Shown here: one piece after another, positions 11,148 to 41,000 of the stretch
Position numbering within the stretch: position 1 is the first letter of the stretch
Layout of the letters: each line of letters starts with the position of its first letter
NCBI GenBank assembly: GCA_964459075.1
Contig: CAYWKE010000001.1
Location: forward strand, 4,626-68,625
DNA length: 64,000 nucleotides
Direction: 5' to 3'
Source: an uncultured Candidatus Saccharibacteria bacterium
GTDB taxonomy: Bacteria > Patescibacteriota > Minisyncoccia > Phycocordibacterales > UBA12088
Program-made: the position numbers and the translations under genes
Notes under the pieces: model-generated
Database searches by the model: none
What the model was told of the DNA's origin: nothing
Seen by the model: only the letters and a program-made list of their open reading frames with translations

Positions 11148-11196
11148 GGTACGTAAAGAACTTAGGTTCCCCAATAAACACTACTACTAAAAGAAC

Positions 11197-20571: not shown

Positions 20572-20603
20572 GACCCCAACAAAGTTTTTCTAATACATGT
20601 CCT

Positions 20604-20609
20604 AGTATA
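20604..20609 (-). promoter_or_regulatory. TATACT -10-like hexamer ('CCGTATACTAGG') 32 nt upstream of ATG 20571
   Basis: It lies in the 79-nt intergenic region between the permease gene and the 628-aa surface-protein gene. Confidence 0.35.
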
Positions 20610-20650
20610 CGGCGAAACGTGGTACGTGTGCAGGGTCGTTATGTGGAAAA

Positions 20651-21859
20651 CTACTTGTAGCGAATGGCGTCGAGTGGGTTGAGTGCAGCAGCGCGGCGCG
20701 CTGGGAAGACCCCGGTCAGGAACCCGACGACCGCCGAGAACGTCAAGATGAAGAGGAGGAACCACAACGGGAAGGCAAAGAGGGCCATGGCCGTACCGCC
20801 GAAGTTGGTTGCAGCAATATTGACAGCTAAGTTGAGACCTTTCCCAATACCCACCCCAATGAGAATACCAACAATACCTCCCATGAAGCCCACGATGATG
20901 GCCTCCGCGATGAAGAGGATCTTGATGTCGTTACTCGAGGCGCCCAGGGTACGCATGATACCGATCTCGCCTGTGCGCTCCAGGAGGGTGACGGTCATGG
21001 TGTTGAACATACCGATCGCCGAGACGGTGAGCGCGATACCGCCAAATACCGCGAGCACCGCCTGGATACCCTGGAAGATGGCGTTCGCCTGCTCGACGGT
21101 CTTGGAGAGCGCGGTCACCGAGAAGCCCCGCGCAACGATGGCATCCGTGACCTGATCGAGAAGCCCTGCCTCAAGGACACGCACCTGGATACGCTCGTAC
21201 GAGGCGATCGGAACGTGCGAGGAGAGCTCGTCGAGGCGAATGAAGCTCGCTATCTGGTTCTCCTCACTCGTCACCCCGAGAACCGTGTAGCTCTTCTTTA
21301 TCTCGACCTCGTCCGTCTCATCCGTGCCCGAGCGCGGCACGAAAACCCGGAACGTCACCCGTCGACCGATGGCATCCTCGGGGTCTTCAATGTCAAAGAG
21401 TTTGAGCATGGCCGCGGTCAGGATGACCCCATTGCGATCCTCAACCGCGCTCTCCTCGTCAAAGAGCCGCCCGGCAGCTTCCTTGGCACCCACGAACCGA
21501 AAGTACGCCGGGTCAAGCCCTTGCAGGAAGGTGTTACCTGTGAGGTCACCCAGGGTGATGAGTGCCGGGAACGATGCCATAGGCGCGACCTGACGCACCT
21601 CGGGAAATGCACTCAGCTCCTGAACCACCTGTGGGTCGAGCACGACCACGCGCGTGGGAGGATTGGTGACGTTGAGCGAGAGGAGCGTGTCCCCCAGGAC
21701 GATCTGCTCCAGGATGATACCCTGCAGACCAAAGCCCAGACCCACGAGGGTCACGACCGCGCCCGTTCCCACACCCATACCAAGGATGGTCAACCAGGTA
21801 CGCGTCGGGTTGGTCTTGAATGCGCGCGTCGATAGTGCTGCGATGTCTCGTACAAGCAT
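20651..21859 (-). CDS. ABC transporter permease, FtsX/MacB-type (4 TM with large extracytoplasmic loop)
   Basis: 402 aa. N-terminal 'TWLTILGMGVGTGAVVTLVGLGFG', large loop, then a C-terminal three-TM bundle ('...ILFIAEAIIVGFMGGIVGILIGVGIG...FPLWFLLFILTFSAVVGFLTGVFPARRAA'). The stop of the upstream ATPase gene is 6 nt away. Confidence 0.8.
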   Translation of the reverse strand: MLVRDIAALSTRAFKTNPTRTWLTILGMGVGTGAVVTLVGLGFGLQGIILEQIVLGDTLLSLNVTNPPTRVVVLDPQVVQELSAFPEVRQVAPMASFPALITLGDLTGNTFLQGLDPAYFRFVGAKEAAGRLFDEESAVEDRNGVILTAAMLKLFDIEDPEDAIGRRVTFRVFVPRSGTDETDEVEIKKSYTVLGVTSEENQIASFIRLDELSSHVPIASYERIQVRVLEAGLLDQVTDAIVARGFSVTALSKTVEQANAIFQGIQAVLAVFGGIALTVSAIGMFNTMTVTLLERTGEIGIMRTLGASSNDIKILFIAEAIIVGFMGGIVGILIGVGIGKGLNLAVNIAATNFGGTAMALFAFPLWFLLFILTFSAVVGFLTGVFPARRAAALNPLDAIRYK

Positions 21860-21865
21860 AGGCGA

Positions 21866-23356
21866 TTACGCTTCATCAGGTACTCCCTTCTTGTGATGCT
21901 TCTTGTGACGCCAGCGCCACAGAGCGCTGTGTGAGGCGAACTCTGCGGCGGCGGCCTCGGCATCGGCCTTCTTCTTCTCTTCATGCTCCAGCTCCGCCTT
22001 CATGATCTCGAGGTTGTGCTTGCGCTTCTCCTGTACCCGTATCTCAGCGACACCCTGGGCGATGAGCTTCTCGAGGTAGAGGGTGACCTCGTGCGTCAGG
22101 TAGATGTCAAGCCCGACACCTCCTTCTTCGGCTGCGAGGTGGAGCTGTCGCTTGAACTCATCTTTGTCGATGTAGCCCCCCACGCGCGACTCGACCGAGA
22201 CCCGGAGGTGCTTGAATTGCTCCTGGGAGAGCTCAGCCCCACGCTCGTGTACGAGGTGTACGGCGATATCGTCCGCAATGTCGAGCTTCTCCATATCGGT
22301 GACCCCGTGCTCTGAGCCGTGTGCCTTCCGGAAGCGAATGATATCCTTACTCTCCCTAAGGATACGCTCGAGACGCTCAGCAAGCTCGTCCGCGTACTCA
22401 GGGCGCAGCCCCACACCCCCTTCTTCCTGCGGCTTCTTGAGAAAGAGCTGGAACGCCTCGTGAGAGAGCTTTCCTTCAATAGCGTACTCGGCGACCTGCT
22501 GGATGCGAGTGATCTGGTCGAAGGAAACCGATTGGGTGAGGTAGTTGAGCAAGCTCTTCACGCGGATCATCGCCGGCGTATCGTAGGGGTAAATACGGGT
22601 TGCTTGCTCCAGCTCGGTCACGATCGAGGTGCCTGGCCGCAATTTGATGACCTGCTCCTTCTCCGGGTTGGCTACAATACGGTCCATACGTCCGTCCTTC
22701 AGGTAAAAGACCCGGTGCGCGTAGGGTAAGTGCTTCGCGTCGTGGGTCACCAGAAGAATGGTCTTGCGGTCCTGTTCGTTGATCGAGTCGAGCGTGTTCA
22801 TAACGGCCTCCGCAGAGACCGAGTCGAGGTTACCGACCGGCTCATCGGCGATGAGGATCTCGGGGTCGGTCACGAGAGAGCGGGCGACCGATACACGCTG
22901 CTGCTGCCCGCCCGAGAGGTTGGTGGGAAGCTTGTGTGCGACGTGCGAGATGTAGAAGCGGTCCAACAGCTCCATCGCTTTGCGCTCGCGCTTAGCTTGC
23001 GGCACGCCAGCAAAGATGAGGGGGAGTGCCACGTTGTCGAGAACCGTCAAGGATGGGATGAGGTTGAACTGCTGGTACATGATGCCCATCGTGTGGCGCT
23101 GGAACTCCACGAGCTCAAAGGGATCGTAGTCGTAGATACTGTCCCCCTTGACGTAGACCTTGCCCCCTGAGGGAGGCAGGACCCCGAAAATAGAGTACAA
23201 GAGGGTCGACTTGCCACACCCCGACGGACCGAAGAAAATGATGTACTCCCGCGCCGCGATCTCCACGTTCATGTTCCTGAGGGCCTTGAACTCGTTGGAC
23301 TTGCCCTTGTTGTAGGTGATCTCGACCTCTTGTGTGTTAATGATCGCTTTTGCCAT
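21866..23356 (-). CDS. ABC transporter ATP-binding protein (MacB/FtsE-like) with ~260-aa repeat-containing C-terminal extension
   Basis: 496 aa. Walker A 'GPSGCGKST', signature 'LSGGQQQRVSVARSL', Walker B 'ILIADEPVGNLD'. Residues ~240-496 are an extra helical domain with the duplicated motif 'EEGGVGL(R/D)'. Confidence 0.85.
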   Translation of the reverse strand: MAKAIINTQEVEITYNKGKSNEFKALRNMNVEIAAREYIIFFGPSGCGKSTLLYSIFGVLPPSGGKVYVKGDSIYDYDPFELVEFQRHTMGIMYQQFNLIPSLTVLDNVALPLIFAGVPQAKRERKAMELLDRFYISHVAHKLPTNLSGGQQQRVSVARSLVTDPEILIADEPVGNLDSVSAEAVMNTLDSINEQDRKTILLVTHDAKHLPYAHRVFYLKDGRMDRIVANPEKEQVIKLRPGTSIVTELEQATRIYPYDTPAMIRVKSLLNYLTQSVSFDQITRIQQVAEYAIEGKLSHEAFQLFLKKPQEEGGVGLRPEYADELAERLERILRESKDIIRFRKAHGSEHGVTDMEKLDIADDIAVHLVHERGAELSQEQFKHLRVSVESRVGGYIDKDEFKRQLHLAAEEGGVGLDIYLTHEVTLYLEKLIAQGVAEIRVQEKRKHNLEIMKAELEHEEKKKADAEAAAAEFASHSALWRWRHKKHHKKGVPDEA

Positions 23357-23361
23357 ATCGT

Positions 23362-23468
23362 TTTAGTATGAGGGTGAAGTATGAGTATGAGTCGTGGTTT
23401 GTGCTACGCACAACACACGTTCACAAGCGAAGCGTCCCACATACTCATACTGCATACCCATACTCATA
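23362..23468. repeat. imperfect long inverted repeat built from GTATGAG/CTCATAC units between the FN3 gene stop and the ABC ATPase start
   Basis: Left arm 'AGTATGAGGGTGAAGTATGAGTATGAGT' (23367-23394). Right arm 'CATACTCATACTGCATACCCATACTCATA' (23439-23467). A ~40-nt spacer separates them. The right arm abuts the TAA of gene 23469... Confidence 0.45.
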
Positions 23469-24920
23469 TTACCCGCCGATGTTATTGACCCATCCGAACG
23501 CTCCCTCGAAGTTCTCGAGAATGATGTCGATGATGTTCTTCTCTTGCTGTGGAGTGAAGAGGACGAAGTTCTCCGAGCGAGCGGTGTTGTCGGCGAGGTC
23601 AGTACACTCGATCCAAAACTGGTAGACGGTCGCCGGCTGGAACTCGACCACCACCTGCACGTGCTCGGTCGCTGGATCGTCCTTCATGTCAAGCGCGAAG
23701 GGCTCAATGCTCTCCTGAATACCCTGCCGGAAGAACATCTGGCAGAGCGAGAGCTCATCGGTCTCCCAGGTGACGATGGTCTGGATGCGTGCCTCGGCCC
23801 CTGGGAAGAGTGTCGACTCGTTGGTGACCTTGCTGATGAGCGGTGGCTCCTCGTCGATCACGGTCGTGAAGGTAATGGGCTCTGAGAGCGTGGAGTCACC
23901 CTGGTCGTTGGTTGCGCGCACCTGAGCCACGTACGTCGTTCCCAGCGTCAGATCAGAGAGTCGTACCGTGTGCGTCGTCAGCAGCTCGGGACTCCCCTCT
24001 GAGCGCACCTCACCGGTCGCGAGGTTCTCGTGCTCGACCGCACCCGAGGCCGGCAGGTCGGTCGACCACGCCAAGGTCGCTGAGGTCTCCTCGACCTTCA
24101 ACAACTGGATATCGAGGATCTGCGGCAAGCGCGACTTCGTCTCGAAGGTGTTGTCACTCGATACTCCCTCGAGGTCGAACTCATCCACGGACTGAACCTG
24201 GAAGTGGTAGACCGTCGCCGGTGTGAGCCCCGAGAGGCGTACCTCGTGTTCGGTCACCAGCTCATCGGGTATGCCCTGCGTGTCCGAGTAGGACTGATTT
24301 GCTGCGTAGTACGCCTCGCTCGCGTAGGCGACCTGGGAGCCAGCTGCTCGATTGGTGTTCCATGAAATGACCGCAAAGTCCATGCCTACCTCGGCAATGC
24401 GGGCTGCGCCAATGATCGCAGGTGGGCGCAGGATATCCTCCGCTGAGCTCTGTACCTCATCCTGGATGATACGAATGGCGTTGGGATCGGTCACCTGGCT
24501 CACGGCGGAGACCGCCTGGCCAACGAGCGCCTGCTGTTGCTCACTGGAGACGGTCTCGATGTTCTCGATGTTCTCAAACCCTCCCGTGGTAAAGGTGAAG
24601 TCGCCTGAGATGCCTTGGTTGCCAACATCGTCGGTGGCTGTGATACGGAAGTGGTAGGTCGTAGAGGGTTCTAGCGAATCGATGGTGACGGTATGGTCGG
24701 TCACGTTGAGCTGCGGGTTACGCACGATACCGTAGTCGCTGCGCTTGCCGTAGTTGAGCATGCCGATGGCTTCGACGTCGGTCACCCACGTGATCGTGGC
24801 CGCGTTCTCGCTCGTTGAGGCGATCTCAACGCTTGAGATGATGGGGGCCGCAGCACGCACACTACTCCCGCCGAGCGGCAGGATGAGTGAGAGAAGTAGG
24901 ATGACGAGGAACAGATGCAT
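23469..24920 (-). CDS. secreted protein with four fibronectin type III-like domains
   Basis: The ORF-track start (24929) is a GTG, and the ATG at 24918-24920 ('MHLFLVILLLSLILPLGGSSVRAAA', signal peptide) is preferred. Repeated FN3-like units end in '...TTYHFRITATDDVGNQGISGDFTFTT', '...TVYHFQVQSVDEFDLEGVSSDNTFETK', '...TTYVAQVRATNDQGDSTLSEPITFTT' and '...TVYQFWIECTDLADNTARSENFVLFT'. Confidence 0.7.
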   Translation of the reverse strand: MHLFLVILLLSLILPLGGSSVRAAAPIISSVEIASTSENAATITWVTDVEAIGMLNYGKRSDYGIVRNPQLNVTDHTVTIDSLEPSTTYHFRITATDDVGNQGISGDFTFTTGGFENIENIETVSSEQQQALVGQAVSAVSQVTDPNAIRIIQDEVQSSAEDILRPPAIIGAARIAEVGMDFAVISWNTNRAAGSQVAYASEAYYAANQSYSDTQGIPDELVTEHEVRLSGLTPATVYHFQVQSVDEFDLEGVSSDNTFETKSRLPQILDIQLLKVEETSATLAWSTDLPASGAVEHENLATGEVRSEGSPELLTTHTVRLSDLTLGTTYVAQVRATNDQGDSTLSEPITFTTVIDEEPPLISKVTNESTLFPGAEARIQTIVTWETDELSLCQMFFRQGIQESIEPFALDMKDDPATEHVQVVVEFQPATVYQFWIECTDLADNTARSENFVLFTPQQEKNIIDIILENFEGAFGWVNNIGG

Positions 24921-24938
24921 GAGCGACACTGGTGGGGT

Positions 24939-25280
24939 TCACGGCGAATCGTAGTCAAACACGCGACGCATGTACCACAGCAGGATGAGGAGCACGCCCA
25001 GCAGGATGATACCTATCGTCACCTCGTCGTAGTAGTAGTACGTAGCAGGACGGGTACACGCAAAGTGGTCCGAGAACGTTCCGTCACAGTACCGACCACT
25101 CTTGATCGAGAGCAGTCCACCGACCAGTAGGAGGGACCCTACCATCAGTCGGATGTTCTCCATGAAAATGAGGAGGTCGCGCATCACGCCACGACGCGTC
25201 ATCATGAAGAGGTAGCGAAGGGTGTTCCCCGCGCGTATGCGTCCGTGAGCTGGTTTCCCTGAAGTGTGTTCTGTGGACAT
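24939..25280 (-). CDS. small two-TM membrane protein (hypothetical)
   Basis: ORF 24939..25301. A TATACT -10-like hexamer lies inside the first codons of the track ORF, so the start is placed at the ATG at 25278-25280 ('MSTEHTSGK...'). Hydrophobic helices 'LMVGSLLLVGGLLSI' and 'VTIGIILLGVLLILLWY'. Confidence 0.35.
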   Translation of the reverse strand: MSTEHTSGKPAHGRIRAGNTLRYLFMMTRRGVMRDLLIFMENIRLMVGSLLLVGGLLSIKSGRYCDGTFSDHFACTRPATYYYYDEVTIGIILLGVLLILLWYMRRVFDYDSP

Positions 25281-25328
25281 ACGTTCTCTAGTATACGTCA
25301 TACGAGGATTTGCTGCGCGTGGATTTCC

Positions 25329-26000
25329 TCATCCGAGGGCGAGTGCGATGAATTCTGCCTCGATGCGGTCAATGTCCGCAGTGAGCGCTTCAAGCGTGGC
25401 GTAGTGCTCGGTTAGCGCGTCGAAACGCTCCTCAGCATCCCCTGTTTGCTGGTTGATCTCTCCAATGTGCTCGGAAGTGAGCACGCCCTCCTCCTCGATG
25501 ATGCGAGCGACGATCGCGGCGGTCTGGTCAAAGGTCGCCATGAGCTCGCTCGTGATCGCGGTCACGAGCGATCGACGTTCAGCGAGTGCCGCGAGGAGTT
25601 CATCCGCTTTCGGGCGCAGGGGAGCTGGCAGCTCGCGGGCCCGTGCTTCCATTGCTTCGCGCGCCGCAAGGACCTCGGGAGCGATCTCGGTGATCTGCAT
25701 GAGCGATGCCTCGCGCATCGCAAGGTCAGCTGCGGCACGTTGTGCCCTGTCGAGTCGCTCCGGAGCAGACACTTCCCCCACCAAGAGCACGGTGAGATGC
25801 TCGTGGATACGCGCTCGCACTGCCGTGTCCTCGCTCCCTGGCGCCGTGATCCGTACCAACTCCGTATCTGCCAACGCTCGGTACGCACCGTACGCCTCGA
25901 TGAACGGAAGCGAATCCGCCTGTTCGTATCCCCGCGTCAGGTACCACCCTAGCGGTGCGAGCGTGAGCAGAAGAACGGTTGCGATGAAGAGTGTGCGCAT
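25329..26000 (-). CDS. membrane-anchored all-helical protein translationally coupled to the giant ORF
   Basis: ORF 25329..26270 trimmed to the ATG at 25998-26000 ('MRTLFIATVLLLTLAPLGWYLTRGY...'). This ATG lies 1 nt downstream of the giant ORF's TAA (26002-26004). The rest is Ala/Glu/Leu-rich helical ('...LVTAITSELMATFDQTAAIVARIIEEEG...'). Confidence 0.5.
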   Translation of the reverse strand: MRTLFIATVLLLTLAPLGWYLTRGYEQADSLPFIEAYGAYRALADTELVRITAPGSEDTAVRARIHEHLTVLLVGEVSAPERLDRAQRAAADLAMREASLMQITEIAPEVLAAREAMEARARELPAPLRPKADELLAALAERRSLVTAITSELMATFDQTAAIVARIIEEEGVLTSEHIGEINQQTGDAEERFDALTEHYATLEALTADIDRIEAEFIALALG

Positions 26001-26001
26001 G

Positions 26002-29000
26002 TTAGTCCGAGACGGCAAAGAAGGTGTTAATCCCCTCGTGGGTGACCCCGCTGATCCCCGTGGGTATGGTGATGCCCCAGAAGATGTCATCGATGATGGG
26101 TACGGTCGAGGTGGGTTTCGGCAGGTCGAGCTCGAACTGGTTGGAGGTGGTCGCCAGGAAGTTGCAGATCGCGCACGACGCACTGGTGAAGGTCGAGGTG
26201 GCGTAGCGGATGTTGCTCGCGAGGATCTCGCTGCCTGGCGCGGTGAGATTCGAGCCGGCGAGATCGACATCGATAGCGGTGTTGCCAGTGTTGCGCAAGG
26301 TCGAGGAGGCGACCGAACCAGTGGTCGTCCCGAGGGTGAGCGTACCGAAGTCGATACCCTCCGTCGTCAGCGTGATGCCGAAGGTCGTGTCCAGCTCGGT
26401 CGCCAGCGAGGTGGCGGTCGCGACCTCGCCCGACCGATCCTCGACGATGACGTACGAGAGCCAGTGCTCGCCGGAGAACGCACCAATGTCGGTCGGTTCT
26501 GCAAAGAACTGTACGTCTGCGGTGCAGGTGATGTCACACGAGGTACCTGCACAATCGAGCGCACACGACTCATTTCCGAGGCGGTAGCAGCTGTTATCGT
26601 CTGCGGTACACGCTTCTCCTGAAGGCAAGCCCGAGCGGTAGAGCGTCGAGGTTGCCCCGATGATGTCTCCAGAGCCGTTGAGGTCGGTCACCGTACCGGT
26701 CGCGATGACCGCGGTCGTCGTCCCTTCGGTGAGCGTGATGGGGATTACACCATTGTAGTTCCCCGCAAGCGTCCAGTCGCCCAGTACCGGGATCTGCAGG
26801 ACGCGCACCTCGGGCACGCGCGGGTAGCTGTCTAACTCGAGTCCGCCGTCGGTAGTGCGCAGACAGTACGCGTTCTGGTTGGCATTAGCGGTGAACTCGA
26901 GCGCGTACTCGATCTCGGTGAACTCGTTCGCATCAAGGTCCATCGATGTCGACTGGTTGCTTGAGTCCTCTACAAGGTAGCCCGGCACGAACGTGCCCAT
27001 GAAATCAGTATCGAGGAGCTGTGTGGTCGGATCCTGATCAAAGAACTGAGGCGATGCGACCATACAGATCGGCGAGAGACCACATCCAGCGACCGCAGGC
27101 ACATCATCGTACTCGACCGAGGGTACGGCCTCACACGTGCCGAACGACCCCTTCTCCGCGTACTGGAGTCGGAACTGCTGGCCCGTGATCTGTGCCCCGC
27201 TGTTCTCGACAGAGATACGCAGACGGAAGTTCTGTTCGGCCTGCTGTCGCGCATTGACCGTATCCTGGGCAGCGCTCCAGCTTGCACCATCGTTGACCTG
27301 CTCCGTTCCGGTGATGGTCGTCGGCTCGGTTGCCGAGTAGGGGCGCACCGTCACGAAGTCGAACCCGCCGTTCTGGCCCCAGTGGCTGAAGCCAATACCA
27401 CCCTCGCTGGGTGAACCTGCGCTGTAGGAGAAGGAGGCGATCTCGGTATCGGTCGAGTCACGAACCACCGAGACGTTGAGTGTGTCGTTGAGGAGCCAGT
27501 CGATCTCGATGCGGTACCAATCGGTCGCAAAGCTGACCGAGGTCGAGGCTACGACCGTGCCCGAGTCATCGCTCCAATCGACATCCTGAGCCAGGGTGAC
27601 ACGATCACCATTGAAGAACTGATCAAGACACACGGCGTAGTTGTCGCCAAAGCCCTGAACCGCGAAGAGGAAGCACGGCTCATCGAATTCGGCTGTATCG
27701 ACGTACTGGTAGACGCGCAGCGTCTCTCCTGGACCAAACGCTGAGCCCGCAGCATCCTGGGTGATACCCCCGTTTTCGGTCTGCAGCCCTTCTTGGGTGC
27801 TGGCCGCAGCAAGTCCGTAGGCGCCCTGATAGTTGAAGGACGTGCTCAACCCGAAGCGGGTCTTATCGAGCCCCGAGGAGGGTGCGTACTCGTCGAGATC
27901 GTTGTCCTCGAAATCATCAATGAAACTGAATGTTTCTGAGCTGCTCGCGGCACTGCCGACGCCTGCATTCCCGTAGTACACATATATCGGCGTGGTGCCG
28001 CCTGCAGGAATAGTGGGGAGTGTCACCCACACGACAGCCTCGGCGTCATCAACTTTCGATTCGATGTAGTACGGAATAGAGGTCGTCCCGGTCGAGTCCG
28101 TAAAGCGTAGGTCATCGAAGTCAGGCTGCATCTTCCCTACCCCCGGGACGTGGTCGATCGTGACCTGTATGGGATAGTTTGTCAGTGCGCCACCACTATT
28201 TGAGACCGTGATGCGCTTACGGTATCCCCACGACGGATCGAACCACTCCTCGGCAGGCACCCCTTCCCCATCGTTATCCGCACGGAAGCGGTAGTGCGCC
28301 TGCGATACCTCAAGACACGTACTGTCGGCCCACCGAACCGCACCACACAGATCGGTGTCGTTCAGATCATAGTCTTCCCCAGCGAGCACACCGAACTCGT
28401 TGACGAACGTCCAGAAGTTCGCGGTCGTACCCGAGACCGTCACGTTGGAGCCTGTTGCAACCCCAGTTGAGGTCGAGAAGCCGACCTGTGCGAAGAGCTT
28501 GGTGGGGTTTTGATCGAAGGTGCTTGAGGCGACCGTGAGCATCGTACCTCCGTCAGCACTGAGAATGAACTCACCTTGGGTCAGCTGAGAGACAGTGGGG
28601 GCATCTGTGAAGGTGAGTCCCTGCGCATCGAGACCACTGACCGTAAAGCGCTGCATATTGAAGGTACCTCCCGCGATCTCCCACCCGAAGGCCCCACTGC
28701 CCCCTTGCACGTCGATCGTAGTGGTGGCCACGAAACCACTCGCCCCGATGATGTCGAGGGTGCCACCTGTGAAGAGGAGCTGTGAGCCCGAAGCCACACG
28801 CACATCGACCCCGCGTCGGTTCACCCCCGACAGAGCGGTTCCATCAAAATCGATCGAGTGGCGCCAGTACTCGTTCCCACTCGTCCGTTCATAGGTGCCC
28901 CAGATGTAGAGATCGCCGTCCTGATCGAGGTGATCCTGCGAGTAGAGTGATCCTGTTGTGGCCACATCGTAGACAGTCGCTGACGAGCGCCAGAGCGCAA

Positions 29001-32000
29001 CGTCGGTCGTCGAACCGACCTGGAGTGTCGCGTAGGTCTCGACCGCATCGGTTTTGGCACCCACCAGGAAGTTGAGGCCGGAATTGAGGTAGAGCGTTGA
29101 GCCGGCAGCCCACGTGGTCGCTCCACCGATACGGTTCTCAAAGACACCGCCGACCTCGAGTGTCGTCCCCGCGTTCTGGGTGAAGCCCCCCGCCGCCAGC
29201 AGGCGAACCGCGCCCGTGGTTGACGCATTGTCAGTGAGACTCCACGAGCCCGTGCCGTTGACGATGACCTCGTTGAGCAGCGCGCTGTTGGTAGTAATGG
29301 TGTTACCCCCGCCCGCACCGACGAACCGCATCCCTCCTGCCCCAGCGCTGAAGGTCGTCGAGCTTGCGGCAAAGAACGAACCACCTATTGAGAGAGTCGA
29401 AGCAGGTGCGGTGAGCGAGCCACCTAACGCGCGAAGTGAGCCAGTCGTCGTCGCCGCGCTCTCGGCAAAGCTCCACGAGCCGTCACCTGCTGTCGTTAGG
29501 GACGCAAGCGATTGTCCAGCGAGTGTGATCGTCTCTCCTAGATCGCTGCCCACGAGACGCAGCTCCCCCGGCGCGGTCATAGTGCCACCCGACACATCGA
29601 AGGAACCGCCGACCGCGAAGGTGCCCGAGGGGAAGACGGCAGCGCCTGCGCTGAGTGACACATCGCCGGTTGACGTGGCCTGACTCTCGGGGAAGGTGAA
29701 GGTTGACGAACCGACGAAGGTCATGGACGGGGCAGCTGAACCAGCGAGACGGACGTTCTCTGCTCCACTATCTGAGATGAAGCGCCAGGTACTCGTCGTC
29801 GCCGCACTGAAGCTACCTCCCGTGACCTCGAACGAGCCGTTGATCGCGAGGTTCGCACTGGGGAAGGTCACCGCGCCCGCGGCTTGTTCGATATCTCCCG
29901 TCGTGGTCGCTGCGCTCTCAGCGAAGCTCCATCCACCACCCGCGCCGATGAAGCGCACGGTATTGAGTGGTGAGCTGTTGAGGTCGAGGCTCTTGCCTGT
30001 TGTTGTTGCCGTGAACTCAAGGGTCGAGGAAGCCGCCGCGAACGATGCACCACCGTTAACCAGGAAGCTACCACCGATCTGGTAGGTCTCTGTTCCCTGG
30101 GCGGTCAAAAGCGCATCCGCATAGAGGTGGAGTGAGCCGTCCTCGGGCGCTCCTGAGCCCAATGGAGTGAGGGTCATAGTGCCTCCCGGCGCGAATTCCT
30201 TCGACCCCCACACGATGAGCTTGGTCCCCGCAGCAAGGGTGAGCGTATCGGTCGCCGCGTCCTCGGCATCAAAGGGAATGTTCGCGTCATCATCGCTGTC
30301 GTGGTTGGCCATGTTGACGATGGTGATGGGATTCACATCCTCGTGGCGAACGATGACCCTATCCTGGTAGAGGTCCATATCGAGGATGTTGGTCACTGGG
30401 TCAACGGTCACCGTTGCGGCTTGGATGCCACTCGCTCCTTCCAGGTAGACAATGAGGGGATCCCCTTCCGTAAAGCCGATGCCGGTGAAGGTGAAGACTG
30501 CCGGTCCATCCGAGCACGAGGTCGATGTCGCTGGCGCGCCACCCACCACGAGGGTGACGTTCAGTGCTGAGCCGTCGCACACGCTCGAGCCCACAAGTGT
30601 CGTCCCCTCGTCAAGGTACACTCGACCTTGCACAGTAATGAGGGCGTCGCTGTCATCCCAAATGAGGTAGCCAGGGTCACCGCCCGGATCGATGTCGAAG
30701 TCTTCACCCTCGAGTACGCCGACCGCCTGCGGGAAACGCCAGGTCGCGATCGAGGTGCCGGTCGCGATGATGTTGGTACCTGTAGCGACGCCGGTTGAGG
30801 TACCGAAGCGATTGCTGCGGAAGGTTTTGAGCGGGTTGGCATCGATGACCGTACCGCCCACGGTCATGATGGTTCCTGCGTCGATCTCAAGCTCGAGGTC
30901 GTTGTTCTCAAACACGCCGATCGTCGGCGCGCCGGTGAAGGTAAGTCCTGCGGCATCAACACCTCGCAGCGAGGCAAAGCGCATTGAGAAGCTTCCTCCC
31001 GCGACCGAAAGCGCATAGGTGCCTGCACCATCACCCTCGATCGTCGTGGTCGCGGTCGTTGAGCCCAGGACCGAAAGCGACGCGCCTCGCACCACGATAT
31101 CGCTTCCCGAGGCGATCACGACCGAGACCGGGCGACTTGAGGTGGCATCGAGCAGCGTACCGTCAAAGTCGGTCGCGTAGCTCCAGTGGTCGCTCCCCAT
31201 CGTCGGTTGGTACGCGCCCCATATGTAGAGGTCCCCATCATTCCTATCGTGGTCTTGCGAGTAGAGGGATGAGGTCGACCCGACATCGTAGGTAGCGGCT
31301 ACACTATTCCACAGACGCACATCCGTGCCCCCCGATACTTCAAGCTCGTCGTAGACATCACCATCTGAAGAGGAGGCGTTCACGGAGAAGCTCGCCCCGC
31401 CGTAGAGTGCAAGGGTTGACGTACTCCAGTCGGTCGCCGCATCAAGGAGCTCATTCTCGAAGGGCCCCCCGACCGCAATGCGCGTACCCGAGGCAACCGC
31501 GAAGGACGCTGCGTCGGAGAGGTACCAGCCCGCGGTCGCGGTCGCACTCGCAAGCACCGCCCACCCGCCACTTGCTGAGAGGAAGCGAACATTCGCGAAG
31601 GGAGAATCACCCGGCTCGATGGTCTCGCCCGTGTCGGCCGAGTCGAACACGAACGTACTGGTGATCGGTGCCGTGAGCGTTCCTGTGTTGCGGTACGAAC
31701 CGGCGATGCGGGTGTCATTCGCACTCGCAGCGATGTAGGTCGCCGAAGTGGCGATCAGGAAGTCTCCTGCGACGTCGAGGATGGGGTCGTTGGTATTTGC
31801 GGTCACGCTCACGCTTGTTGAGCCATTCCCCACGTAGAGGTCGCGCCCGACGCTGATCGTCGAGGCAGCAAGCGTGTACGTAGGGCTGCCCGCTCCCTCA
31901 GGCGCAAGGACCAGGTCGTGGTAGATGCGCGCGGCAATGACCACCCCGCTCGTGCCTGCATACGTGGTTGTCGCGGTCTGTGCGTTGAAGGTACCGGCAC

Positions 32001-35000
32001 CGGTCAGTACGTTGCCTGAGCCCGTGAGGCGAAGGAGGTCATCGCCCGCATTGAACGTGTGATTCCCCAGAATGGTGAAGGTGCCCGAGATCGTGGTCGT
32101 TCCCGCACCGACCTTGGAGGTCGACGCCGAGGAGCCGTTCCCTAGGGTGAGGTCATGGACGTACCAGTCACTATCGCCACCGAAAGGCCCCTCACCCTCA
32201 AGGTCGAGTGACCCGTCGGTGAGGTTGAGGACACCGTTCCCTGAGAGCGAGCCTACCTCAAGAGTGATGGTCGTTGTGCCGAGAACCGTGCCATCCGTGA
32301 GGGCGATCGACTGGTTCACGGTGAGCGGATCTTGGATGGTCCACTCGCCTCCCGCGCCCTCAAAGGTCATCGTGTAGAGATCATCCGGTGAGGAGATGCG
32401 CTTGCCGGTCGTGGTCGCCACGAAGCGCAGATCGGCGGTCGCGGTCGTGAAGGTCGAGGCGCCATCAGCGATCCAGCTGCCGCCTACGGTGACGGTCTCA
32501 CCTCCGAGCATGGTGAGCGTAGCACTGCCGGCCAGGCGCAGCGTACCATCCTCAAAGAGTCCAGAGCCGCTACTCAAAAGCGTCACGTCACCTTCTGGGG
32601 TGAAGGTCTTTCCGCTCCACACCAACAGCGCAGTATCGTGAGCGATGGTGAGATCGGTAGGGAGGGTGGTCGCCGTGAAGGGAATGTCCGCATCATCAGA
32701 GGAGTCGTAGGTAGCGAGGTTCGCGGTCGTCAGCGCTGCAACATCCTCGTGACGCAGGATGACGTAGCTCTCGTAGAGATCGAAGTCTGCGATCGCGCCC
32801 GTCGGGGTGCGCGATACCGTCGCGGCTCGCTCACCTCCACCTGCGTTGTCGAGGTACGCCATGATGTCGGCGTCGCCTGAGAACTGCACTCCACCGACCG
32901 AGTAGGCACCGGTGACCGGATCACACGAGCCGGTGTACGACGAGCCCCCATCCACCACGACACGTACGACATTCGCGGTCGCACATGCTGAGCTGCCCGC
33001 ACCCGCACCCTCATCTTCGTACACGGTGCCCGATATCGTGACCGTAAAGCCAGAGTCATCCCAGCGAATGTTCCCGGGGTTGCCTCCGGGATCATCATCG
33101 AATGCCTCACCTGCGAACGAACCAGTGGTGTCGCGGAACCACCAGTAGCTTGCGGGTGAACCCGTTGCCGAGACGTTGCTGCCCGTTGCCACGCCTGAGG
33201 AGGTCGCGAAAGACAGGCCGAACCACTGCGAATCCGGGTTCTCATCGATGGTTGTCGCGTCAAGCGAGAGTGAGGTCGCTCCGTCTGTGGAGAGTACGAA
33301 CGCGATCGGCTCAAAGTTCGTGACGGTCGTCGAGGCGAGAAGCTCAAGGCCTGAGGTCGCGGTGTCCGTGAAGGATGCGTATGCCGCGCTCAAGCTCGCA
33401 CCCGATAGAGTGAGGTCGTAGGTACCACTTCCCTGCGCGGCGACCGAGGTCGTTGCGGTCGAGGTGCCGACGATCGAGAGTGCTGCGCTCCCCTGGTACG
33501 TTGCAGACGCGCCGTCAGCAAAGCGCACCGAGACCGGCCTCGCTGCAGGGCCCGCAAGTGGTGTGAAGTCGAAGTCCGTTCCCGCACTCCAGTAGTCGCC
33601 ACCCGATGAGCGCCCGTACGAACCCCAGATGTACAGCTCGCCATCGTTGCCCGAGTGATCCTGCGAGTAGATAGAGCCCGAGGGATCAACGGCGTAGCTC
33701 TGTGCGTCACTGTTCCAGAGACGAATGTCGGTGTTCGGGCCGATGCGTAGAGTACCGTACGATTCGTCCGCAGCCGCCTTGGCGCCTAGCGTGTAGTTCG
33801 TGGCTGAGGTGAGCGCGAGGGTCGAACCACTCCAGACGGTTGCCGCGCCGATGGTGTTCACCAACTCGCCCGCGACCTCAATGCGCGTGCCCGTGGCTGC
33901 CACGAAGGATGCTGCTGCCGCGAGGGTCCAGTCGTTCGTTGAGGTCGCATTGGCAATGACCTCCCAGCCACCCGCGCCGCTGTTGACGGTCACGTCATAG
34001 AAGGGGTTGTCGCCCGGATCGATCGTAAAGCCGGTCGTGGTCGCATCGAACTCAACCTCACCGAAGCCCGCCGTGAACTCACCTCCTGCAGCATCGAAGT
34101 CGCCGCCAACGGTAAGCGTATCGGTCGGGAAGTTCACGAGACCGCTCTCAATGGTGAAGTGGCGGGCCACCTCAGCATCAAGATCAACAAAGGTGCGACC
34201 TGGACGACTCTCTTGGCTGGAGGTAGCCATGAAGGTTGCCGGGGCGTCCTGGTTGTTGTACTCAGTCGCGTACCAGCCTGCAGCGCGCGAGCTTGTTGAG
34301 AAGCGTAGCTCATCGAGAAGCCCTTGGAGTGCCTGACCAGGATCGAAGTTGTACTGCCCAACATCCTGCTCTTGGCCGATGACGAGGTCGTTCGCGGTGA
34401 TCGAGAGGGTGTCGTGGGTCACTCCAGGGTTCTCGGTCTCCTGTACACCGTTGTAGAAGACATTGGAGTCATCTGGATTGTCGAGACGTTCTGAGACGAA
34501 ATAGTTCCACACCCCGCCGTTAGCTGGAGGAGCGATTGGGTAGTTCGCACTGGTACCCACCCCAGCCCCTGTGTACTGCCGATATTCGGATGCACCGTTG
34601 AAGAAGAGCAAGTACTCGTTGTTGTTCCCCGCATTGATACCCGAGACGATCGCGAAGGAGTCTGATTGTGTCGTGTTGACCCACCAGGACGCGATGAGGT
34701 CATCACGTCCATCGACGAGCGAGATGGGGAGGTTGATGAAGTCGCCAGCGTTGCCATCGAACTCCTGACCGCTCCCCAGCTTTCCGCTCTTGCCGGTGGC
34801 ACCTATCCTATCGTCACCATCAAAGCCGTTACCCGTCGAGTCGGTGTAGAGATCGTTGGTCGTGATACCACTCGCATCCTCTTGTAAGTGGAAGACCGCG
34901 AGGTACTCCGCCCACACAGCGTTGCGGCCGTTTTGGTCCGCATCGGCAACCCCGGTGTCATCTGGATTCCCATAGTAGACGTAGAAGCTCGTATCGACCG

Positions 35001-38000
35001 TGCTCGAGAGTGACGGCGCGAGGAAGTGCACCTCACCGGTCCCTGAGGAGGTCGCGATCGCGACAACCTCACGCGGTACGAGGGTGGTACCGTCGTCGGT
35101 CGTGATGCGGATATCATCGCCGTCACCCTGCACGCTATCGAAGAACTCAGCCCCCAGGATGGAGAGGTCGAGGTAGACCGGGAAGTCCGTGACGTTCGTA
35201 TCTACCTGGCTCGCCTGAATGGTGATCTCAGTGCGGTTGAGCCACGCTGTGTCGAGCCAGTCGGCGCCACCCACACCCAATCCAGTGAAGGTGACATCGT
35301 AGAACTCGGAGCCGCCTGCACGCACCGTTTGGGGACCAGCGAGTGTACGAAGGATGACCTCGCCATCGTTGGCATCGAACGAGCCCCCCGCATCGATCGT
35401 GAAGTCGCCCCCGACCGAGAGTGTGTCCGAGGGAAGAATGACGTTCCCTTGCGAGACGAGGAAATCGTCTGACGTGGTCGCGGCACTATCGAGGAAGGTC
35501 CACTCACCCGTGGGGTTATTGAAGCGCAGTTGGTAAAAGTCGGAACCACCAGCCTCAACCTGTTGGCCTACGGTCGCGCTGGTGAGGGTCACCTGTCCAT
35601 TGTTGTGTTGGAATGTGCCCCCCGTATTGCGGAAGGAACCGCCCACGGTCGTGACGCCGGTCGCAAGGGTGACGGTGCCGGTCGCGATGGTGTAGTCGCG
35701 CAGCGCGGTCACGTCTGGCTGTGAGAACGCCCAGTTGCCGCCCACACCATCGAAGGTGACGTCGTAGAATGAGGAGACCCCGGGCGTGATGGTGCGCCCG
35801 GTCGTCGTTGCCGAGAAGAGCACTTCCCCGGTGCGCGGCGTGAAGATACCGCTGTTGAGGAAGTCTCCCTGGACCTCGAGCTGGTTGCCTGCGCCACCTG
35901 CATCCAAAGTCGCTCCCGAGAGAATGCGCACATCGGTGAGGCGAATGTCAGAGCCCATGACCGCAACGCGCCCCGTTCCGGTGATGTCGATAGCGCCGAG
36001 GTCCTGCTTGGGCGTGGAGAAGTCGTTGAACGCGTAGGAGCCAGTGCCATCAAGGGTGGTCGTCGCACTTCCCTTTTGGAAACTGCCGGTACTACTGATC
36101 TGGAATGCGCGCGCGACCGTGGTCGAGGCACTGCCGGGCGAGAAGGTGCCATACGCTATCGCCAGGTTCCCGTTGACATCGAGCGGGGTTGCGAGCGTAA
36201 AGGTCGCATTACCCGAAGCGTTCCCGAACGTGAGGTTGTAGAACGATGAGGTCGCAGCACCGGTGGAGTCGATGCTTTCGGTCGTCGAAGTGGCATCGAA
36301 GCGCACGAGCGAGGTACCCGCGGCAAATCGGCCCTGGTTCTGCCACGATCCGGTGAGCGCAATCGTGTTGCCGTCAGCGATGAGCTCCCCGTCAACAACG
36401 ACGTCGTGGGTCGCGACGTTCCCCGAGCCCGCGCTGTCCGGGCGGTACGTGGTCGAGGCGAGAACGTAGAGGTTCGCATCGACGCAGCCCCCGACCGCGC
36501 AGGTATCCAGATCATTGTTCACATCAACATCGAAGAAGAGGTCGGGATCGCCCGCAACCGAGTTATCGTACTGCTGGAGATCCGCGTTGGTGAAGGTCAT
36601 CAGCTTGTTCGATCCCAGCGTCAGGTGGCGCTGGTAGAGTTCCATGCCCTCCTCGTCCCCGATACCGTCGTAGACCGACACCGCAACCGCACGCGAGGTC
36701 GTTGCCCCACCGTCGACAAAGACGGTCATGACGGTACCAGGCAGCGCGTTGACGTTGGTGAGGGTCCACGTACCATCCGGCTGGATGGTCGCGGTCGAGG
36801 GTTGGATGACCCCGTCGAGTGCTACTCGCACGGTGCCCGAGGTCACGAGCGCGGAGCGATCGTAGGCACGCGCGATACCCGACACCTCGATACCCTCAGA
36901 CCAGGTCACGCTCCAGTCCTCAACGACCGGACAGTCACCCGAATCGGTGCAGGTGAAGGCGGCCACTAGACGGATCTCACTGTACGTTAGGAAGTCGAGG
37001 TCCCCGAGGTCGATGGGTGAGGTGGTCGCCCCGGTTGCGTTGGTAGGAATGTCAGCAGGAGGGATGAGGAACCAGTCAGTACCGGTCGCGTACTCGACGT
37101 AGTAGCGAATGGTACTCGTCGCTGGCGTGACATCCCTCCACGTAACCTCACCCCACTTCGGCCCCGTGCCGTCGGAGAACGTGATGGTCTCTGATGTTGC
37201 GGTACCGGTCAGCGCTTCGTTGATACGCGTGAGCGTGCCCGTCGCCAGCTCGAACGCCAGCACGCCTACCGACTCAGTTCGGTGACCACGAGATCCCCCA
37301 TCACCGTTCTCTTCATCGATCGTTGCATAGATGAGAGCGGATGTTGCGGGAACACTATCGTTATACACTGCCCAACCTCCATCTCCTCCCTTTTCACCGA
37401 GTTGCTGCACAAGGGCCACGAGAGGTGGTCCGTTGGTGAACGGTGCAGTGAAGTTGATCGCGTCAGGATCGCTACCGTCAACACTATCGATGGTCACCAC
37501 GGCGTCGAATTCTCCACCGCTGTTCGTCCCTGTTCCTACGTCGATCGCGATCCAATCGATATCCTCGATCATCGGCGGCGGTGTCTGGAAGCTCGCACCG
37601 AGCGCGACACCGAACTGCGAGTTGGTTGGTTCATTGGCTAGTGCTGCGCCGTCATTGACGAACGTCGTCACCCAGGCTGAGTTGTTCTCGGTCGCGACCG
37701 TCGCCAGCACCACCGGGCTCCCATCGAACGAGATCGGGAACGCGATCGTGCGATACCCATCTGAATCGGAGTACCCATTGCTCTGAATGTCGGTGACGTC
37801 TTCTGCGGTGTCCGCGACGAGCTTCACCGAGCCCGTTTCATTCTCCACACTCCACGTTCCTGACTCCATTGCAATCCAGTCGATCGTGGTCGTGCCTGTG
37901 GGATCGGTCGTACCGTCGTCATTGTCGACCTTGATCTCAAAGCTGTTGGTCGTCTTGTTCCTCACGCGCGCGGTGCGCTGCCGCACGTCAGGTGCGTCGT

Positions 38001-41000
38001 AGCGAACCGAGGCGACCACAACGAGGTCGGAGAAGTCTTGTGAGAGTGTTACCGGTGTCCAGTCAGAGCCGTTCACGTCGATGGTACCGTACTCACCGAT
38101 CACACTCTGTATCTCGAGGTTGTCATTCACACCCGTGATACCAGTGAGCGAGTTTCGCAAGAACTGCTCGTTGGTGGTCTGGTGCCAGGTGGAGACCGCT
38201 GTCGTGCTGGCGATCGTGAAGCTTCGCTCGTCACTCCAGAACGAGAAGAGGTTGTCACCTGCAAGATCACGTGCGCGCACCCGCCACCAGTACGTGTCAC
38301 CGTCGATGAGGTTGATGCTTGAACTTGCGGTGAAGACGATCTCTTCGCCTGAGGTGAAAGGCGAGGTCTCTGGGTTGCCATCAGCACGCGTAAAGGCACC
38401 GAACGGGTCACTGTCTGACGTGAACGAGAGAGTTCCAGACGCAAATGCGGTTGAGGAGGATATCTGGATCTCGTACACCAGCGATTCATTCTGCGGGTCT
38501 ATTGTCTCGAAGAAGAACTGCGTGGTGGACGATGCTACCTGCTCGTAAGGGAAGGGCGACGTTGTGGTTGGTGTCAGCACACCTTCGCGCCACTGTACGG
38601 TCCAGTCGTAGAGGATGGGGCCAGTCGTTGTCGAGGGTGAGGAGAATATGGCCACAGGCCGAATAACATTGTATGTCTCAGTATCCAGATCAATGAGATC
38701 GAACGGTCCTGTCGTGGTACCTGCTTCGTTGCCCGGCAAGTCCTCGTCGGGGATTGGGAGCCATGAAGAGGAGAGGTACTGGAGCTGGTAGGTGATCGAG
38801 CCCGTGGTCTGATCGTCATTCCACGAGAAACTTCCCCACTTGTTGCCGATCGCACCGTCATCAAAGTCTATGGCTGTGCCTTCAAGTGTTCCATCAAATG
38901 CATTCTCAATGGTCCCAGATGCAGCGGAGAACCCAATGACGCTACCCTCCTCATCTGCGTGGCCATTTCGCGTGTTATCAGGTCCGTCCTCATCAACTGA
39001 TCCGTAGAAATCGGTCACCGTCACCGCAACCTCAGTGTCACGGAGCGCCCACGACCCGTTGCCGCCATTCTCACCACCTTGCGCTACGATGTAGACCACC
39101 GGCAGACTCAGGAACTGCCGCGTCCAGGGAATGTTGTGCGTCGGATCATCGAAGATACCATCAAGACCCAGATTGCCGCCGGTGGTCTGGAAGGCGGCAT
39201 CCATCTCGACGCCGGCACTGGTCGTCCCGTGGAACTCCTCGAATGCCACATAGTCGATCTCCTCAGCTGCGGTGTGGTCGTTGTTGGCATAGCTCGTCAA
39301 AATTTGGAGACGCAAATTGGTATCGCTGGGCGGGTCCCCACTGTCGCCATCATCTGCTTTGGTTGCGGCCCACGTGGGGTCGTTATCGGAGGCAAGCGTG
39401 TGGAGTACAACTGGCGTGCCCGAGAAAGCGGGTGCGAAGACCACATTCGCAGGAGTTCCTACTTCTACGGAAGCTCCACCATCCCACCCAAATTGCCCAT
39501 CGGTCGTCTCACTTCCCGCGACCACCCGCACACCACTTCCTCCGTCATTGATGGTCCAGTCCCCTGCTTCCACAGCGAGCCAGTCGACCACGGTCACACC
39601 CGAGGGGGTAGGCGTTTGCGCGTGGTTATCGACCTTGATCTCAAAGCTTGTCTGCCCTTTGTTGCGTACACGGGGACTCCGTGGGTCAACGGTCTCGTCG
39701 TAGCGCGGACTTGCCACGACGACGAGGTCATCGTAGCTACCGGACAGGTTCACGGTCGTCCATTCGTTGTTGTTGAGATCGACGGTTCCAAACTCAGCCA
39801 CGACACCGCCCAGCCGCACTTCATCTGATGTTGAGGCAAACACGCCCCGGAGCGAGTCGGTCACGAATTGCTCCTCGGTCGTCTGGAACCACGTCGAGAC
39901 GTCAATGGTCGTATCGGTCGTGAACGATAACGGAGGATCGGACCACGGTCCCCACTGGTCAGAGCCGCCCGGGTCGCGTGCGCGAATGCGCCAGTAGTGG
40001 GTCACATCGTTGTCCAATGCACTTGCTCCCGGAACAGTGAAGCGGATCGTCTGACCAGCAGAGAATGGCGCCTTGTCACTCGTGTTTGAGATGTTCGTGA
40101 ATGAGAGAGGTGAACCGGTGACCGTCGAATTCACATCAACGAGTGTCGAGGAGAAATCAGTGGTCGTCGCGAGCTGCACCTGGTAGTGCAGGTCGTCGCC
40201 GGCAAGATCGGACGCGGTGAAGGTCAACTCTGGGGTGAGATCTCCGGTCTTTGCATTGTCAAAGGGCGTACGCGCGATCGGCTCATCCGGAGCCGAATTA
40301 GTATCGAGCTGCGGGTAGTTGGCGGGCGAGATCACCGCGGTTCCCCCGACGCCCACCATGCGGAAGCAGTACGAGCTGTTGGTCTCAGGTGCATTCGCTT
40401 CGAGTACCCAGTCAAACTCAAGGATATCGCCTGGAGCATAGTCAACACTCAGTGCAGCTGAGTTGTTCTCTTCTTCATACGTTCCAGCATCTGTAGTACT
40501 GGCTAGCACTGTTGCGGAAATGGCTGACTGTTCTGCGACCGACGCGTTGTCGAATCCTCGCCACGGAGCACTCGACGAGCTTTGCTGCTCGACCGGGTTC
40601 CACGCAAGCGATGATAGGTCACACGAATCACCAATATTTGCTTGGGCAACCTCAAGCGTGAACGCATCGTCGAGGGCTGTGGACGTTGCGTTATTGAGCT
40701 GCATCGAAACACGCAGACGGAGTACATCGCCAGCCGTGATGGCCGCATCACTCCCGATCGAAGCGTTCTCATCCAAGTCTTCTGACCCCAACGGCCATGG
40801 ATCGGTCGGGGTCTGAGCGTCCTCATTGAGGTACCAACGGAAATCCTGCATGTTCCACGCGGGCACGTTGGAGGTCTCCTGCGCACCAAATGCAACAGTA
40901 GGGTGTGGGAAGGCGTACTGCCTGGACTGCGGCGCTGCGATGAAGTTCTGCTCGTCATCATCCGTTTGATCTTCCCATATAGCGTAGAACGGCTTGGGTG

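Follow-up and report, generated by a model that had tools for sequence, protein, structure and literature searches.

A small gene adjoins the 3′ end of the giant gene in the 64-kb stretch of DNA analysed here (hereafter, the window), and at all of the approximately 48 distinct loci examined, which include family members down to about 22% identity, the homologues abut a giant gene at its 3′ end. We confirm that the small gene is a real gene, and we find that it is part of a giant-protein operon with the order giant, small, two-TM (two transmembrane segments), FN3, ABC, MacB. The explanation that best covers the results as a whole, and to which we would give about an even chance of being right, is that translation of this gene is coupled to that of the giant gene and that its product is anchored in the membrane and serves the giant specifically, as its tether or cofactor.

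The small gene, here the founding member of a family without a name, is a 672-nt ORF on the minus strand (25329..26000). It comprises 223 codons and a stop, and its product is therefore one residue shorter than the 224 aa given in the first-pass annotation. Read on the sequence, the ORF starts at the ATG at 26000-25998; the frame is open further upstream, to an ATG at 26270 that would give 313 aa, and the extended part overlaps the giant ORF. The homologues begin at the residue that aligns with M1 (MR...) of the ATG-26000 product, which supports this codon as the true start, as had been assumed. When the window copy is compared with its 51%-identical homologue at another locus (L001), 79, 69 and 130 differences are found at codon positions 1, 2 and 3, respectively, with a pN/pS of about 0.5 and a dN/dS of about 0.27 (dS being near saturation), and the gene appears to be under purifying selection. 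A chance ORF is ruled out by the conservation of the family together with the third-position bias of these differences.

The family is not easily seen. A word-indexed homologue search returned only an identical protein and the 51% homologue, and the other members surfaced with exhaustive HMMER, which yielded 114 cluster representatives at E<=1e-3 and 55 at E<=1e-10. Nearly all members are 215-240 aa long, and the records that carry an organism name are all from Patescibacteria (CPR). Searches of Pfam, NCBIfam and the PDB sequences, whether with the window protein or with profiles of 2 and 61 sequences, gave nothing significant. On sequence grounds, the small protein thus belongs to an unannotated family and is no orphan.

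The description of this protein as one N-terminal TM helix followed by an Ala/Leu/Glu-rich helical body is borne out by hydropathy, composition and the AF2 model. Alanine accounts for 18.4% of the residues, leucine for 13.5% and glutamate for 12.1%; the pI is 4.6, there is no Cys in the whole protein, and the N-terminus consists of a plain hydrophobic helix, MRTLFIATVLLLTLAPLGWYL. The only hydrophobic segment covers residues 1-24 (Kyte-Doolittle 19-mer maximum of 1.86), and hydropathy and the AF2 helix 2-22 place the TM anchor at residues 2-22 (25935..25997, minus strand). One N-terminal TM segment is present in 145 of the 151 full-length family members, and a second one in none of the 151. 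The mean net charge flanking this segment is +2.5 on the N-side versus -0.25 on the C-side, and this charge bias, together with the single N-terminal TM across the family, indicates an N-in/C-out topology with the bundle outside the cell. The AF2 model (pLDDT 92.2, pTM 0.82) is all-alpha, without strands. In it, residues 31-222 (25335..25910, minus strand) form an acidic, Cys-free, extracytoplasmic four-helix bundle about 65 Å long, the helices of which lie at residues 31-52/56-74, 79-121, 129-169 and 176-222.

The linkage of the small gene to the giant gene is strict. The two genes lie on the same strand in 46 of the approximately 48 loci; at one further locus (L103, member P0064) the small gene is inverted and still adjoins the end of the giant, and one contig is too short to be scored, its few upstream bases encoding a giant C-terminus. 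Wherever the upstream DNA could be measured (42 of 42 loci), the small gene is directly preceded, on its own strand, by the C-terminal module of a giant. This extends to the distant members P0102, P0085 and P0110; for the last of these (L102), the database wrongly calls a gene on the opposite strand, the giant C-terminus being encoded in the + frame. No unlinked homologue of the small gene was found among the approximately 48 distinct loci, and this, with the adjacency itself, backs the proposal of the first-pass annotation that the giant could have a dedicated partner in this protein.

The synteny holds, however, in one direction only: every small gene examined has a giant gene ending beside it, but the converse fails, as about 10 related giant operons are devoid of it, 9 of which also lack the gene for the 113-aa two-TM protein. 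Likewise, giants of similar size occur without the small gene, and shorter paralogues carry the same C-terminal module without an adjacent small gene. When the giant C-termini are grouped by neighbour joining, the operons devoid of the small gene fall in approximately three clades, the tree being too coarse to tell gain from loss. In these roughly 10 operons the giant can evidently function, or at least be kept, without the small protein.

How are the two genes expressed? In the window, the stop-start junction (25998..26004, minus strand) reads ...GTCTCGGAC TAA C ATG CGC ACA..., and the giant's TAA (26004-26002) is separated from the ATG by the single base 26001, exactly as first reported. No SD-like motif was found upstream of the small gene, SD use being rare in the genome as a whole, nor was any sigma-70-like promoter or terminator found in 24800-26400. 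The next promoter-like element comes after the small gene: GTATACTA, a -10-like element between this gene and the following one (25289..25296, minus strand), which is also conserved at the L001 locus. Six copies of GTATACTA occur in the window, where 0.3 would be expected by chance, all of them on the minus strand and shortly before start codons. The location of this element suggests that the giant and small genes form one unit and that the gene after them can have a transcript of its own as well. We propose that the small gene is co-transcribed with the giant gene. Moreover, because of the TAA-C-ATG junction, the lack of an SD or promoter of its own and the position of the next promoter-like element, the small ORF is probably translated, in this genome, by ribosomes directly after they finish the giant ORF.

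This arrangement is not general. Across the family, the gap between the two genes can be as short as about -1 nt or exceed 500 nt; it is 5 nt or less in 15 of the 42 loci, 6-30 nt in another 15 and longer in the remaining 12, so that about 70% of these loci stay within 30 nt and about 30% are loosely coupled. As the gaps vary in this way and one locus is inverted, stoichiometric co-expression is not a conserved requirement, and the tight coupling from which it had been deduced is a feature of some loci rather than of the family.

The giant gene (26002..46299, minus strand) was delimited by ORF, Pfam and signal-peptide analysis. Its ORF would encode 6781 aa from a GTG and 6765 aa from the ATG at 46299, the latter start giving a normal signal peptide. 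After the signal peptide come an N-module of about 100 aa, an acidic disordered stalk of about 250 aa, a long beta-rich body with DUF2341 and a Cys-rich C-terminal module. DUF2341, the sole Pfam family detected in the protein, is matched in both of its halves. The only hydrophobic segment of the giant is residues 9-34; a conserved cleavage-like site, AY(G/S)WA, is found in the signal peptide, and the protein contains neither an LPXTG motif nor a C-terminal TM. The signal peptide looks cleavable, and the giant has no further anchor. The C-terminal module (about 450 aa; 26005..27354, minus strand) was defined from alignments of 13 loci and HMM matches, and the HMM matched it upstream of every small-family gene examined. 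It ends in ...YWGIxxPxGxxxxxxxGxNTFxAVxD*, with a mean column identity of 60% over the last 200 aa. A search with the N-terminal 135 aa of the giant found just one homologous fragment.

A plausible sequence of events can be drawn from these features. The giant would be exported by Sec and would lose its signal peptide, leaving it with no anchor of its own; the bundle of the small protein could then bind a segment of the giant, keeping the giant at the membrane or organising it there. The 113-aa two-TM protein probably acts together with the small protein. Within the reading that we prefer, the evidence, by analogy with the systems discussed below, appears to favour a membrane tether.

The downstream genes could suggest another partner. 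The small gene is followed, all on the minus strand, by the gene of the two-TM protein, which has a C-x12-C loop (24939..25280) and co-occurs with the small gene across loci, and then by those identified with Pfam and NCBIfam as encoding an FN3/PurAcPhosph_N protein (23469-24929), an ABC ATPase (21866-23356) and a MacB_PCD/FtsX permease (20651-21859). The order of this downstream core (20651..24929) is kept in about 45 loci, including loci without the small gene. MacB-type transporters normally work via extracytoplasmic partners with helical hairpins, as in FtsEX-EnvC and MacAB. The small and two-TM proteins could hence be an adaptor of the MacB-type ABC transporter, the periplasmic domain of MacB gripping the helical ectodomain and ATP-driven mechanotransmission acting on the giant or on the envelope. 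The model for this would be the coiled coils of EnvC and PcsB on FtsEX, or MacA on MacB. The likeness to these helical partners is that a MacB_PCD/FtsX permease and its ATPase share their operon with a helical protein located outside the cytoplasm, and helical regions of EmrA and LipC are among the fold matches of our model, weakly and far down the lists.

We nevertheless consider such an adaptor role unlikely. Of the loci that extend far enough downstream, all but one have either both the small and the two-TM gene or neither, and FN3-ABC-MacB is retained where both are missing; indeed, about 9 loci without the small gene keep the FN3-ABC-MacB-p628 core, so the transporter does not need it. 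Furthermore, the small gene abuts the giant gene and never the ABC genes, other genes being inserted between them in several loci. Unlike EnvC, PcsB and MacA, the small protein has neither catalytic nor beta-barrel domains, and its gene is tied to the giant rather than to the transporter. Identity with an HlyD/MacA membrane fusion or adaptor protein was also considered and was rejected, as the model is all-alpha, without lipoyl or beta-barrel domains, and no HlyD-family Pfam match was found among 61 family members.

The small protein might instead guard the emerging 6,765-aa chain against misfolding during export, as a membrane-anchored export or folding chaperone near the Sec translocon, in the manner of YfgM, a helical single-pass protein, with PpiD or of Spy, a helical chaperone of the periplasm. 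We regard this as improbable, to about the same degree as the adaptor role. The gene lies downstream of the giant gene and is probably translated later, which is poor timing for a first round of export, and giants of similar size exist without it; nothing was found, in sequence or as a specific structural likeness, to connect the protein with YfgM, PpiD or Spy. The timing inclines us towards a tether over a chaperone, since a protein made after completion of the giant would come late for a co-translocational function.

In CDI and polymorphic toxin loci, a small immunity gene directly follows a giant toxin gene (CdiA-CdiI). The gene order and tight spacing seen in the window are of this kind, and the small gene always adjoins the sequence encoding the giant's C-terminus, so that the small protein could in principle confer immunity or self-protection against an activity of the giant. 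We hold this to be very improbable. Unlike what is found in polymorphic toxin/immunity pairs, the last 450 aa of the giant are, at all loci, a single conserved beta module rich in Cys, with no variable toxin tip, and the small proteins all form one family; the same module also ends shorter paralogues with no adjoining small gene, and Pfam detected no toxin domain in the giant. Just as improbable is a stand-alone sensor or regulator, a ligand-binding bundle resembling the 4HB chemoreceptor domain that would use its TM helix to pass signals to a second membrane protein: unlike the 4HB_MCP proteins (Tar, Tsr, TorS), the small protein has no second TM and no cytoplasmic signalling or output domain and simply ends with the bundle, none of 61 family members gave a 4HB_MCP Pfam match, and the strict linkage to a structural giant gene would be left unexplained.

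A large part of bacterial diversity belongs to the Patescibacteria, which are believed to spend their lives attached to host cells. Giant surface proteins, although hard to study, are prime candidates for their means of attachment. A small, well-folded accessory protein encoded beside the giant's 3′ end could be expressed, used as a bait or deleted, or serve as a genomic marker of this class of giants, and the operon giant, small, two-TM, FN3, ABC, MacB now offers a defined handle. It also leads to a testable hypothesis for the surface retention of an anchorless giant protein. A much bolder proposal, which we regard as unlikely, is that the giant, the small bundle anchor, the two-TM and FN3 proteins, the MacB-type ABC transporter and p628/p385/p392 together make up an undescribed surface-appendage machine of Patescibacteria. 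The small protein would then serve as the socket, in the membrane, of a fibre of about 6,800 aa that reaches or holds host cells, and the ABC transporter would supply the mechanical work to assemble, release or remodel this fibre.

With its DUF2341 domains and a length above 4,000 aa, the product of the upstream gene is one of the giant DUF2341/FhaB-type proteins of Patescibacteria, which have been proposed, in passages of a recent study, to act in adhesion or host interaction (ISME Commun 2024, PMC11809585). Those passages make no mention of a conserved small downstream partner or of a giant-small-2TM-FN3-ABC-MacB operon, and our literature search for DUF2341 or giant Patescibacteria operons with a small partner found no description of one.

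The closest parallel to the small protein comes from its fold. The top structural match of the model is 2ap3, at 6% identity, a Staphylococcus aureus structure that we take to be a YkyA/PdcF-type protein and a solved member of PF10368. Both share a long four-helix bundle. At the sequence level, the window protein has no PF10368 match at E<=1, 5 of 61 family members give weak YkyA matches (best E of 0.0085, below the curated threshold), and the family profile matches no PDB chain significantly, 2ap3 not being listed even at E<=10. The YkyA/PdcF four-helix-bundle lipoproteins, of which B. anthracis PdcF is the characterised member, are reported to be membrane tethers and cofactors that assist or activate secreted enzymes, often encoded next to them (PMC12700454). 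The small gene, too, adjoins the gene of a secreted partner, at about 48 loci. In contrast to these proteins of Bacilli, our family comes from Patescibacteria, its anchor is a TM helix with no lipobox Cys, and the place of a polysaccharide deacetylase is taken by a giant partner of about 6,800 aa that is presumably an adhesin-like protein of the cell surface. If the small protein is indeed a tether, the recently proposed principle of four-helix-bundle tethering would extend from the lipoproteins of Bacilli to a sequence-unrelated, TM-anchored family elsewhere in the bacterial tree.

The small gene (25329-26000, minus strand) lies directly 3′ of the giant DUF2341 gene, and comparative genomics strongly supports the proposal of the first-pass annotation that its product is a dedicated partner of the giant. 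Around family members P0001, P0002, P0003, P0116 and P0119 the order is giant, small gene, a gene of about 113 aa, FN3, ABC ATPase, MacB/FtsX and a gene of about 620 aa. A scan of GTDB genomes, queried with an alignment of one small-protein subfamily, gave 10 small-gene loci in MAGs labelled Saccharibacteria, Kaiserbacteria or Paceibacteria; in 9 of the 9 having upstream DNA, the small gene is closely preceded by the end of a very long open frame. With the C-terminal module of the giant as query, a metagenome scan yielded 80 loci, of which about 31 carry the small gene downstream (family HMM), in essence the ones whose giant C-termini are closest. The pooled set holds 43 distinct small genes. 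The synteny test set in advance had two sides: the giant module is always immediately upstream on the same strand (42 of 42 genes having upstream DNA), whereas about 10 related giant operons lack the small gene. The 43rd gene has only 38 upstream bases, which encode ...FMATGD(stop), a giant C-terminus.

No unlinked small-gene homologue was found among the loci examined. Four distant family members were checked: two show the usual order, one lies by a spurious gene call and one is inverted, and hhalign identifies these last two as true members. The gene of L102 (JAKFZD010059083.1) only seemed unlinked: the opposite-strand 109-aa public gene call at 1-403 is spurious, and the plus frame encodes the C-terminal module of a giant (E 1e-45), whose end is 26 nt from the small gene. 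At L103 (1454-2491), the sole locus with an inverted small gene, the latter is convergent with the giant 3′ end, between the giant and FN3 genes, and is extended at the N-terminus by about 50 aa. A Sec-proximal chaperone is a possible alternative role for the small protein, although a gene 3′ of the giant would be poorly timed for it.

The next gene (24939-25280, minus strand) encodes 113 aa that include two TM helices and a C-x12-C loop of conserved sequence (CDGxxxxHFxCT). Its presence or absence tracks that of the small gene across about 45 loci with one exception, L058, where it occurs without the small gene, which suggests that the two proteins may act together. In 9 of the approximately 10 operons devoid of the small gene, the giant is directly followed by FN3 and the two-TM gene is also missing. 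Because of this joint absence, the two genes behave as an optional module, present or missing as a pair alongside a conserved giant-FN3-ABC-MacB core. A rough tree built from giant C-termini places the operons devoid of the small gene in about three clades. The persistence of the transporter genes in these operons weakens the case for the small protein as adaptor of the MacB-type transporter.

The ORF is a genuine gene, since most of its differences from a homologue of 51% identity, from a Patescibacteria MAG, are at third codon positions (pN/pS about 0.5; dN/dS about 0.27, with dS near saturation), and it belongs to a family of 114 cluster representatives. A word-indexed search found this homologue as the single relative; the 114 representatives (E≤1e-3; 55 reach E≤1e-10) come from an exhaustive HMMER search with a profile of these two sequences, and nearly all measure 215-240 aa. 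The family, which is from Patescibacteria and unannotated, has no match by sequence in Pfam, NCBIfam or PDB, and we found no published description of it in the literature. Translation from ATG 26000 to 25329 gives 223 aa, not 224 as first annotated. The frame is open upstream to 26270 in the mechanical ORF list; the start at ATG 26000 is borne out by the homologues, whose first residue aligns with its methionine.

The single N-terminal TM segment and the Ala/Glu/Leu-rich body described at first pass were confirmed by the one hydrophobic segment, which is N-terminal, and the composition (Ala 18%, Leu 13.5%, Glu 12%; pI 4.6). Among 151 full-length family members, a single N-terminal TM segment is seen in 145 and a second one in none. 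Their mean net charge, +2.5 before and -0.25 after the TM, places the helical body, devoid of Cys in 143 members, outside the cell. An AlphaFold2 model (61 sequences; pLDDT 92.2, pTM 0.82) places helices at 2-22 (TM), 31-52/56-74, 79-121, 129-169 and 176-222. From these lengths we read the body as a long up-down four-helix bundle, its first helix kinked at a conserved PGxxxNxxR motif. L73, R82 and G172 are invariant or nearly so, followed in conservation by Y40, P54, R62, L69, I163, L174, N183, E190 and Y200.

The minus-strand junction reads ...TCGGAC TAA C ATG CGC..., with the giant stop at 26004-26002 and base 26001 as spacer, in agreement with the 1-nt spacing first noted. Such tight spacing, from which coupling was proposed, is common in the family (gap ≤30 nt in 30 of 42 loci) but not essential (>30 nt in 12 of 42). 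Of the gaps, 15 measure ≤5 nt, 15 measure 6-30 nt, 7 are of 31-150 nt and 5 exceed 150 nt, figures resting on approximate start picks (locus L007 gives -1, but 17 nt by the database start). An inserted type-IV-pilin-like gene, seen in one subfamily (N-terminal FTLIELLxVIAILGILA; L020 1937-2515, L023 6599-7126, L040/L041 6628-7191), occupies three of the longest gaps. No SD-like motif precedes ATG 26000, such motifs being rare throughout this genome, and no promoter-like or terminator-like site was found at the junction. We infer that giant and small gene may form a bicistron in this genome, with reinitiation at TAA-C-ATG. The element GTATACTA occurs six times in the window (0.3 expected by chance), always on the minus, coding strand and about 8-30 nt upstream of start codons (5178-5185, 6481-6488, 20603-20610, 25289-25296, 48599-48606, 53651-53658). 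It resembles a -10-type promoter element, from which leaderless or near-leaderless mRNAs would arise in this lineage; the copy at 25289-25296, between the small and 113-aa genes, is kept in L001, the locus of the 51%-identical homologue.

Upstream of the giant gene lies a cohesin-domain gene (46511-48007, minus), and just past its end a GC-rich hairpin (46460-46500, minus; ACACCCCGCGCCC...GGTGCGGGGTGT) is probably a terminator, in which case the giant gene would be the first in its transcription unit. Two secreted proteins (16207-17385 and 48660-50693, minus) combine a dockerin-like C-terminus (DINQDGxVDLxDFSIxLFxW) with DUF4215/Big_6 domains, a hint of cohesin-dockerin assembly of surface proteins. 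A 628-aa protein (18685-20571, minus) has a C-terminus like that of the giant (...YWGIRVPSS...YRGLNTITG...); the gene after it (17382-18539, minus) encodes 385 aa with an FGISPPY motif at the N-terminus and is also seen in other metagenome loci, next to short paralogues (about 315 aa) that bear the giant's Cys-rich module. Together they look like a second, related module. A second large ORF (56504-63733, minus; 2409 aa) shows, close to the N-terminus, a weak BclA_C-like match and has a C-terminus resembling that of a 397-aa protein (52277-53470). Downstream of the surface-protein cluster, 5212-12489 (minus) carries common housekeeping genes, for glycerate kinase-like (DUF4147/MOFRL), PEP-utilising enzyme, 2-hydroxyacid dehydrogenase, enolase, YjeF_N and VIT1 proteins, consistent with a chromosomal, non-mobile context.

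The giant measures 6781 aa from the listed GTG and 6765 aa from ATG 46299, which gives a normal signal peptide, its one hydrophobic segment, with a conserved AY(G/S)WA|S/R site. Next come a conserved N-module (about 100 aa), a disordered acidic stretch (about 250 aa) and beta-rich domains that span about 6,400 aa; DUF2341, matched in both halves, is the sole Pfam family detected. The acidic stretch (residues ~137-370; 45190-45890, minus), rich in Pro/Glu/Asp/Thr with PEPEPT-like repeats, has the look of a stalk or of a spacer across the wall. Common to the giants is a conserved, Cys-rich C-terminal module of at least 450 aa, ending ...YWGIxVPxGxxAxxxxGxNTFxAVxD(stop). An immunity protein is unlikely, as this C-terminus is conserved, not polymorphic, and so is a sensor, the small protein having no output domain. 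The giant sequence contains neither LPXTG nor a C-terminal TM and, if its signal peptide is cleaved, needs something holding it at the cell. That the small protein would serve as its tether or cofactor is the best-supported reading, at about even odds.

The closest comparison is with YkyA/PdcF, lipoprotein four-helix bundles (PF10368) reported to serve secreted enzymes as membrane tethers and cofactors, and whose genes often adjoin that of their partner, an unstructured segment of which packs on the bundle (PMC12700454). The small protein fits this working model by its position and topology as well as by its fold and gene neighbourhood, but falls outside YkyA/PdcF both by sequence and by lipobox. 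Four-helix bundles being generic, the analogy offers a lead, not proof. As far as the evidence goes, the small family would act as a counterpart of YkyA/PdcF that is anchored by a TM helix and unrelated in sequence.
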